A stretch of DNA of 64,000 nt, from positions 248,001 through 312,000 of the forward strand of contig CDROCS010003603.1 in assembly GCA_977020255.1 (NCBI GenBank). The letters run 5' to 3'. A program made the translations under genes and the position numbers. Position 1 is the first letter of the stretch; every line of letters begins with the position of its first letter. The notes under the pieces are model-generated. The model made no database searches and was not told the DNA's origin. It worked only from the letters and a program-made list of their open reading frames with translations. The DNA is from Obrimoposthia wandeli. Taxonomy: Eukaryota. Below are positions 34,186 through 36,487 of the stretch, piece after piece.

Positions 34186-36168
34186 TTATGGATAATTCTG
34201 AAGAATTCTCATCCTTAGGAATAATATAAATAGTAAAAGGGCCTGGGGACCGCAAAAGTGTTTTCGTTGTTTTGTTTCTATCATTTTTGTATGTTTCAAA
34301 ATTAAGATTCTCCATGATATTTGATTTATAAATGTAATTATTTCGATTACTATAACTAATATTATGAGTTCTTTTTTATCTTCATTCCTTGAATGTTCTT
34401 GTTTACCATAGTGCATTTTTAAACTTTCATTAAATGATTTATAGGATATTGTTTCTGTTGTTTTTAATTTTAATTTAATTCTTATTCTCTCCGTGATTTC
34501 AACTTGATTTGTAACTCTGTAAATCTTTGATGTAAATTCTGTGGTATGTAGCATTTGTTTTGTGGTTGTTTCTTTGACATATTTCTTAATTTTTACTGCT
34601 GACCAACGACCACAAAAAATTGTAGGTTGATATAGTTTGGATATCTTATTTCCTAAAATTGTTAATTTTGTTAGATTTTTATAACTTTCAAACTTTTGAC
34701 TCCATTGTCTGTACATTATTGGTTTATTAGTGATTACGCATTCTCTATTGTCCATAATTATTTTCTCTGGATATCTTATATTTTTTATGGTTAAATTTGT
34801 TTTAGTTTGTGTATTTTCTAATTGTTTTTCTGAGTCTTATGTCTTAGGTGCCATTATGTTTGAGCAGTTTATTTCTTTTATGCTAAATGTGTTAAAAAGT
34901 ATGATTCTAGTGATTGGTTCTACAAATAATGAATTATTTTTGTAAGAAATTGGTAATTCTTTTGTACATTTTTGGTGATTTCTTAAGTTAACTATTACTT
35001 TTTTACATTGATAAGTATATAACACTTCTCCCATTACTCTTCCAAAAGTACCGTCAGCTAATGGTAATAATGGTGTTATTAATTCTGGGTTAGTAGCAAT
35101 AATTGCCAATTTCGTTTTTAATATTTCTTGATTTAATTTACAATCATTCATTATGGTTTCTCTATATATTGCTTATATTGTTATTAGTCCTTTGTGATAA
35201 AAATAATCTAATTTATTGTTAAAATAATCATAATTTTTAATATCAAATTTAGTTGGTGTCGTTTTTGCATTATGTATTTTTTCATTACTTAAATATATTC
35301 CTTTATAATTAGTTGTATAAACAGAGTGTCCACATCGGGATTCCTCTTTCTTTTTAATAAATCGCATTCCTGAACCTTGTTCAATAGACATTAATATAGT
35401 TGGAGTTGATGTTTTTCGTATTTTTCGAGTTCTATATTTTTTGCGTATGTCCTTTGGAATTTGTTGATCTAGTTCCGGATCATCTCTAAATCTTTTTCCT
35501 TGAATTATTTGAAAAGTTTCTGATTTTAAATGTATTAATTTACATTGATCCATTTTTACTTTGTAGTAAAGTATTGAAGAACCCGTGTTACAGTGACCTA
35601 TGTTTGCTTCACAAAATGGCATTGTTACCATTGTGTTTGTGGAAGGGTAGAATGTTGCTTTGAAAGTTCTTAGTTCGACTTCAAAATTTTTAATAACTAC
35701 TAAATCACTTTGCTTAACTCCCATTACGACATAAGTTCCTGTTGTACATTCTCCATCAGATTTAATCGTACCTACAACTGATATCATTTGTTGAATTATT
35801 TTATTTTTCGCCGCTCGGACTTTTATTTCTCTATCTATTCTCAATTCTCCTGTTGCGAAAGCATCTTTACAATTTAAAGCGTCAACTATTATTGGTGTTT
35901 TTCCTAATGCTGGTTTTACTATTGAATTGTGACTATGTTGTCCACAATATGTTATAAATGTCTCTACGTGTACTCTACATTCGAAAACTTCTGCATATAT
36001 GAAATCTGTTTCCTGATATACTTGATACAACTTAGTATTTTTGATTTTTACCTCATTTGGGTCAGCGTCTGAACATTGCTGTAAATCCATTAAAGAATAT
36101 TTATTTTGAATTTTATATTTTGAACAATCATGTGCTTCTAAAGCATTAATTGGTTTTATCATGTTCAT
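34186..36168 (-). pseudogene. env: Env-like glycoprotein, chuvirus/herpes gB-type (class III fusogen-like), ~660 codons with two in-frame stops
   Basis: ORFs 36168-35173, 35151-34837 and 34755-34186 are one frame, broken only by TAA at 35175-35173 and 34839-34837. Cys pattern AHDC, ECRV..TYCGQHSHNSIV, C..A..TG, DGEC, GEVLYTYQCKKV, CTKELPI, FVEPITRI. C-terminal hydrophobic stretch LIILVIVIEIITFI. Confidence 0.75.
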
Positions 36169-36487
36169 AATTAGACATATTGTTAATATTATCTGAATAA
36201 TTTTCCATAATTTTATTAAGATTATTTGTATTTTTAAAAATTTTAGTTTTTAGATTTTTTAGTGTTTTTCGTTTTTTCTTGTGTTTTACTTTCTTTTCTT
36301 GTGTTTGAGTAGTTTGGTTTGTTTTTGTGATTGTATATTTATTTTTTTGTAATGTCAAACAACAATCTTTAAGCATGTCTCCAAATTCGGATTGTAAGTT
36401 TGTTCTATCTGTTTGTGGTTCACTGTTATGGCATTGTTGGTGTATTTCTCTGTAGCGATTATCCTTTTCTTTAAGTCGTAATTTTAA

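Follow-up and report, generated by a model that had tools for sequence, protein, structure and literature searches.

The window examined here, a 64,000-nucleotide stretch of AT-rich DNA from Obrimoposthia wandeli (assembly GCA_977020255.1, contig CDROCS010003603.1, positions 248,001 to 312,000), contains on its minus strand what is very probably a copy, now dead and with an internal deletion, of a young and abundant Ty3/gypsy long terminal repeat (LTR) element of about 14 kb. This level of confidence covers the anatomy and identity of the element's polyprotein, and is discounted for the proposed processing. An earlier note on this DNA had singled out the frame at 36249-34186 as a full-length glycoprotein of the chuvirus or herpesvirus glycoprotein B (gB) kind, hidden behind two point stops. 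The frame was found to be chimeric: a truncated fusion protein, G, runs on into the C-terminal part of a second membrane protein, which sister copies encode behind the integrase (IN). Taken by itself, the frame belongs to a dead copy with nothing unusual about it, from a kind of element already described; it was the chimeric tail that led to the second membrane protein.

A truncated fusion protein joined to the tail of a second membrane protein

As the earlier note described, only two stops, at 35175-35173 and 34839-34837, interrupt the frame at 36249-34186 of the minus strand, which is 687 codons long; the best frame of each of 2,000 base shuffles contained at least 38 stops. Hydrophobic peaks at residues 9-27 and 628-646 bear out the proposed signal-like N-end and transmembrane (TM)-like C-end, the signal-like stretch occupying 36210-36166 and terminating on the first ATG. 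Fifteen cysteines lie ahead of the second stop and three behind it. With the stops read as X, the N-terminal part of the frame matched the Pfam family PF24664 (Monjiviricetes_fusion) with an E-value of 1.2e-53. A PDB search with this single sequence gave no match, and a profile of 107 G relatives gave herpesvirus gB as the first 38 of 40 rows (best, Epstein-Barr virus gB, E 8.2e-4). When 1.84 billion representatives were searched with G, long G-containing polyproteins came first (27-46% identity), followed by stand-alone G proteins of about 650 amino acids (23-31%). The conserved cysteines are present in G, and the prediction of a chuvirus/gB-type class III fusion protein is right as judged from these comparisons.

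The frame is not a full-length G, since the PF24664 match stops at profile position 433 of 653 in the window (634 in an unbroken sister copy) and the last fifth of the ectodomain is deleted together with the TM segment. Only one of the two supposed point stops is a point change, namely 35175-35173, which is a sense codon in 19 of 19 sisters; the other lies on seven unmatched bases at a deletion junction, the sequence of which occurs once in the genome. Sisters were searched for in the genome of the window (1.35 Gb). With 35400-34600 as query, all 39 scored matches besides the window, among the best 40 of 4,193 candidates, broke off at 34846. The flanks of the junction site are spaced 4.76-4.78 kb apart in five of seven mapped sisters (3.97 kb in one, interrupted in one). 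The approximately 4.77 kb deleted here comprise the end and TM segment of G, protease (PR), reverse transcriptase (RT), RNase H (RH), IN, a second signal peptide and about 1.5 fibronectin type III (FN3)-like domains. Beyond the junction, the last 216 residues share 90-96% amino acid identity with the frame behind IN in sisters. Of the two origins offered earlier for the last ~210 residues, the chimeric one thus stands and the divergent stalk does not; the segment 34836-34186 maps elsewhere in the same element, neither to G nor to the unrelated repeat that had been allowed for.

G lacks an ATG in the window because it is internal to a Gag-G-Pol polyprotein and because a private stop and an 11-nt frameshift lie upstream. 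The stop at 36490-36488 is a sense codon in all 16 aligned sisters (three of 19 are unaligned there), and the 11 nt absent near 36211 are present in 16 of 16 covering sisters (three of 19 lack coverage). Splicing, frameshifting or fusion to pol had been put forward for the missing ATG: fusion was half right, with gag upstream and pol downstream of G, and neither splicing nor a programmed frameshift is needed. The window gag matched Pfam Retrotrans_gag below cut-off (E 6.8e-4). In the tail of the second protein the frame differs past ~34245, a one-base difference being seen in 9 of 22 sisters relative to one reference copy. The window copy is dead: at most Gag is readable, and no secreted or anchored G is possible.

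Other accounts of this copy were weighed against the internal deletion. A G of full length, silenced by two point stops and having a divergent stalk as well as its own TM segment, would agree with the continuous frame, the signal at its start and the TM-like stretch near its end, but can practically be discounted, as the tail belongs to the sisters' post-integrase frame 4.77 kb downstream and true G continues otherwise, with a TM segment of its own. An env domesticated by the host, or a new chimeric G-FN3 sub-family spreading in trans, is hardly credible: both parts were left in one frame and LTR, primer-binding site (PBS) and gag are retained, but the junction is single and includes a stop, four further lesions are present, the 3' LTR is truncated, and the copy is 97-98% identical to its sisters in nucleotides. 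That two of many near-identical copies were wrongly joined in assembly to give a false deletion is very unlikely, even with thousands of similar candidates in an assembly of 6,912 contigs. Among the listed contigs of four runs of one sample, loose ends at 34846 were found in three runs and a junction-spanning piece in none. The seven junction bases, however, fit neither flank in register, unlike an overlap-based mis-join, and sisters show many other internal deletions.

The element family and its polyprotein

A single frame encodes, in order, Gag, signal 1, G, a TM segment, PR, RT, RH, IN, signal 2, an FN3-like ectodomain, a TM segment and a tail, so that G stands between gag and pol with its own signal and TM segment; the main frame is followed by open reading frame (ORF) 3, for a coiled-coil-like protein, and ORF4, for an ISG20-like exonuclease. 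The post-integrase region gave 127 scored matches of 96-100% identity (of 5,708 candidates, a total that is not a copy number), 59 of them in frames of at least 640 codons. One sister holds an unbroken frame of 2,889 codons, the intact ORF of the family, and the window copy shows stops, frameshifts and the 4.77 kb deletion. Frameshifts among sisters are scattered and mostly private, found at the gag-G joint in 5 of 22 copies and at the IN-signal joint in 9 of 26, counts that leave out large deletions splitting the alignments; a programmed shift is therefore unneeded at either joint, and one between IN and the second protein was ruled out.

Sister LTRs are 1.0-1.2 kb long with TG..CA ends, and five pairs are 89-99.9% alike, four of them 97-99.9%. 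A 4-bp target-site duplication was present in three of the five pairs, the other two being not evaluable. At the PBS, a 13-nt match to tRNA-Arg(TCT) was observed in seven of ten sister loci; the window and one sister carry a one-base variant, and none was found in two. Sisters thus show the LTR ends and target duplication, PBS and polypurine tract, and PR-RT-RH-IN order of Ty3/gypsy elements, with gypsy-type RH and H2C2 integrase identified in a sister copy for the region deleted in the window. An identity with Troyka was dropped, Troyka having CG ends and a 3-bp target duplication (PMC12440569) against the TG..CA ends and 4 bp here. A non-retroviral endogenous chuvirus sequence or a BEL/Pao Anakin element was likewise rejected, as G has gag on one side and gypsy-type pol on the other, the whole enclosed by LTRs.

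Within the family, pN/pS relative to one reference copy was 0.36 for gag, 0.23 for G, 0.36 for PR-RT-RH, 0.39 for IN and 0.64 for the second protein; these values are not independent across copies and serve only as a lead. This genome also holds at least two further families that carry the same G. Families B and C were collected as 20 stretches, of which 3 and 4, respectively, reach the post-integrase region, the rest being interrupted or cut. The LTR and 5' leader (window 38408-39749) diverge sharply among copies with coding regions 97% alike, the leader type of the window being otherwise found only in locus L027, which suggests recombination or fast LTR turnover.

The type-I membrane protein behind IN is present in 17 of the 18 closest relatives, and changes several-fold faster than IN yet under purifying selection. 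In a model of moderate confidence, its ectodomain appears as tandem FN3-like domains, a seven-stranded beta sandwich superimposable on FN3; a single-sequence AlphaFold model (pLDDT 30) was discarded. The score against Pfam fn3 was 14.2 bits (E 0.053; cut-off 25), and the whole module had no Pfam match. A fold search of BFVD gave phage tail and FN3-like rows only, with no retroelement protein among them, and no homolog was detected among proteins of 244-779 amino acids, where 6,127 candidates gave no scored match. A profile built from domains of the relatives scored the held-out modules of P0162 and P0009 above shuffles; the module of this element and those of P0172, P0174, P0176, P0177 and P0018 were not above shuffles with the same profile. 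The ectodomain is exchangeable among relatives at the post-integrase slot.

Other contents of this slot were also noted. Relatives P0174 and P0176 carry a small cysteine-rich, non-FN3 ectodomain there. Two to four aspartic-protease-like domains occur in P0163, P0166, P0169-P0173 and P0008, some of them post-integrase just ahead of the second signal, where some ankyrin repeats also lie. In family C (L080:3489-5437, L086:6315-7292, L088:2200-5039), putative dual-specificity-phosphatase-like frames behind the integrase precede a short signal-plus-TM piece. P0009, a close relative of the polyprotein, is deposited as a protein of a Flavobacteriaceae metagenome-assembled genome, and is probably animal DNA in a metagenome bin.

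ORF3 is present in most sisters and is 34-37% identical in family B; it had no Pfam match above cut-off. ORF4 matched RNase_T above cut-off (E 4.6e-7), its nearest solved structure being ISG20 (1wlj, E 3.8e-9). All five catalytic residues (ExoI D-x-E, ExoII D, ExoIII H-x4-D) are kept in 17 of 26 sister loci, and ORF4 is a predicted ISG20-like DEDDh 3'-5' exonuclease; the LTR element that carries it has candidate places by the thousand within a single genome.

Known relatives and a possible two-component envelope

GAG-ENV-POL elements with a gB-type env are reported from flatworms, nematodes and bryozoans in PMC13524379 (Chary and Hayashi, eLife 2026). As described there, Smed_errantivirus_1-6 (herpes simplex virus/gB-type, cysteine type C1a) resemble the present element in Ty3/gypsy pol, in a gB-type env between gag and pol and in many recent copies, and the Schmidtea G domain I-II rows of the supplement show by eye the same motifs as G. 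This likeness and the AT-richness of the DNA point to a flatworm as the probable host. Unlike in those accounts, the element here has a single frame of 2,889 codons, a second membrane protein after IN, ORF3 and the exonuclease; no tRNA primer is given there for the Schmidtea elements, whereas a tRNA-Arg PBS was found here. The text and seven supplements of PMC13524379 make no mention of fibronectin, FN3 or an exonuclease, and the text none of a polyprotein. According to the review section on Burro in PMC6431247, these planarian elements carry env in frame between gag and pol; Burro/GYPSM1 share with our element the in-frame env in one polyprotein and three CCHC knuckles, and no membrane protein is named after IN in that section. 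The elements differ in size (more than 30 kb and 4,873 amino acids for Burro in PMC6431247, about 14 kb and 2,889 here), and the Burro cargo MATH, BIR, ankyrin, SUMO-like and dUTPase domains had no Pfam match in the sister copy. Burro-like ankyrin and ubiquitin/SUMO-like domains are carried by close integrase relatives of the element.

The fusion-protein family PF24664 is shared with G of Jingchuvirales/Monjiviricetes and with BEL/Pao Anakin elements, from which the gypsy-type pol context sets the present G apart. Nematode gag-env-pro-pol elements are reported by Sacco et al. (2022) to have a flipped env/pol order, an RNA-virus-like glycoprotein and a continuous frame, features that they would share with the present element. 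They fall in a different clade: the Meloidogyne protein P0220 with the same env family is distant in the integrase tree, a quick-method tree of database hits, and has no hydrophobic segment after IN. Atlas virus (BEL/Pao), as described in PMC9094657, encodes Gag, Pol and Env in a single frame that includes an attachment and a fusion glycoprotein; there a class II Gn/Gc pair was captured together at the C-end, whereas here pol lies between a class III fusogen and an FN3-like protein unrelated to it. Rotifer LTR elements (PMC5408684) have, as here, additional ORFs after pol, for an exonuclease or a small TM protein, the exonuclease being of DEDDy type rather than the DEDDh, ISG20-like type of ORF4. 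For flatworm elements, an env placed in frame between gag and pol has been published before; the second type-I membrane protein was not found in print. Nothing in the literature searched refers to a membrane protein with FN3-like domains behind integrase, and subscription papers, Repbase, figures or the Burro supplement may describe one.

The single frame holds four membrane-targeting segments with catalytic domains between them. By analogy with the polyproteins of flaviviruses and alphaviruses, and with protein translocation in general, the polyprotein might be threaded through the endoplasmic reticulum (ER) membrane, which it would have to cross at least four times. Signal 1 would start translocation of G, the TM segment of G would halt it, and PR to IN would remain cytosolic; signal 2 would start translocation of the FN3-like ectodomain, to be anchored by its own TM segment. 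Signal peptidase would release both ectodomains to the lumen, Gag and Pol would be cytosolic and cut by the element's protease, and Gag, G, Pol and the second protein would be made in equal amounts. A second hydrophobic stretch past the TM segment of G would have to be amphipathic or re-entrant.

Herpesvirus gB shares its job with gD, gH and gL as attachment or trigger partners. By analogy, the second protein may sit on the particle surface and serve the class III fusogen in attachment or triggering, to which we give nearly an even chance. More tentatively, a gB-carrying Ty3/gypsy clade, probably of flatworms, might make from one polyprotein a two-component envelope of class III fusogen, placed between Gag and Pol, and a fast-evolving, exchangeable FN3-type attachment or trigger protein behind the integrase. 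This, if true, would be the counterpart, in a retroelement, of gB together with gD/gH in herpesviruses, and would give a named candidate for target-cell choice. For gB-carrying errantiviruses, PMC13524379 names the entry mechanism as unknown, gB normally needing partners; the second protein would be a concrete same-frame candidate for such a partner.

That the second protein is no entry factor, acting rather on the host cell surface by mimicking a receptor or serving as a decoy, by adhesion for cell-to-cell spread or by excluding superinfection, is a real possibility, if somewhat under an even prospect. Cytokine receptors and adhesion proteins, as in the top fold-search rows, are built as an FN3 tandem with a TM segment; the ectodomain is exchangeable, and rhabdovirus G and baculovirus GP64 are not known to need a partner for fusion. 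Related elements are also rich in host-directed cargo (PMC6431247, same section). The second protein, however, would be made one-to-one with Gag and G from the same frame and is kept in nearly all close relatives, unlike the sporadic cargo domains. Its fast change under purifying selection is typical of attachment proteins. Production of G, also or mainly, from a spliced or subgenomic RNA starting at a Met ahead of signal 1, as for env in Drosophila gypsy, is unlikely. Sisters do have Met codons immediately ahead of the signal, and equal Gag and Pol are unusual in enveloped retroelements; but the unbroken copy has gag, G and pol in a single frame, a fusion of G to pol occurs in 13 of the 18 closest relatives, and a G started at such a Met would still run into pol.

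Features of the window copy and neighbouring sequence

Parts of the window copy (window positions) and of the unbroken sister frame (positions in the 2,889-codon frame)
Feature	Position	Strand	Remarks
5' LTR	39381..39749	-	TG..CA ends, 369 nt (sisters 1.0-1.2 kb); start motif as in sister LTRs and 3' stub; end set by PBS
Primer-binding site	39366..39378	-	complementary to 3' end of tRNA-Arg(TCT) from same genome
gag frame	36488..38038	-	first Met 37645; premature stop 36490-36488
gag CCHC knuckles (three)	36922-36881, 36856-36815, 36700-36659	-	motif
Basic Gag-G linker	36211..36487	-	11 nt missing near 36211, shifting the frame
Internal signal peptide of G	36142..36210	-	hydropathy; cleavage site placed by eye
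gB/chuvirus-type fusion protein G (predicted)	34846..36141	-	~430 of 540 ectodomain residues; point stop 35175-35173; PF24664
Deletion junction	34837..34845	-	~4.77 kb lost; 7 nt in register with neither flank; includes second stop
Second type-I membrane protein, C-terminal part	34145..34836	-	end of FN3-like domain 2, beta-rich/stalk region, TM 34368-34327, cytoplasmic tail
ORF3 remnant	33547..33885	-	~135-aa coiled-coil-like protein
ORF4, predicted ISG20-like DEDDh 3'-5' exonuclease	32204..33384	-	frameshift near 33040, stop 32476-32474; 391 aa in sisters
Purine-rich tract and 3' LTR stub	31963..32000	-	LTR from 31988, cut after ~26 nt
2,889-codon frame, Gag and G part	Gag knuckles 373-460; signal 610-635; G 619-1270; TM region 1178-1235		G, E 5.5e-91
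2,889-codon frame, pol part	PR from 1300; RT 1614-1771; RH to 1964; IN 2073-2400
2,889-codon frame, second protein	signal 2476-2502; TM 2816-2834

Remains of other elements lie elsewhere in the window. On the plus strand, 8600-13000 is purine-skewed with gag-like zinc knuckles and looks by eye like a decayed BEL/Pao element. The minus strand carries an RNase H fragment at 7798-8222 and, at 18923-20339, a broken hAT transposase with BED finger and dimerisation domain. A 177-bp hairpin element with AGTAG..CTACT ends was observed at 23388-23564, and its sequence recurs in L022, L029 and L031, either next to ATPase/integrase genes of Polinton type or where insertions have their edges; it is possibly a miniature Polinton derivative, Polintons having AG..CT ends. 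In three of the first six sisters (L022, L031 and L034), Polinton-like genes (A32-type ATPase, integrase) lie in the copy itself or up to about 10 kb downstream. Adjoining one sister copy, L025:7223-9883 holds an uninterrupted CBP/p300-like frame of 887 codons with bromodomain, RING, PHD and KAT11.
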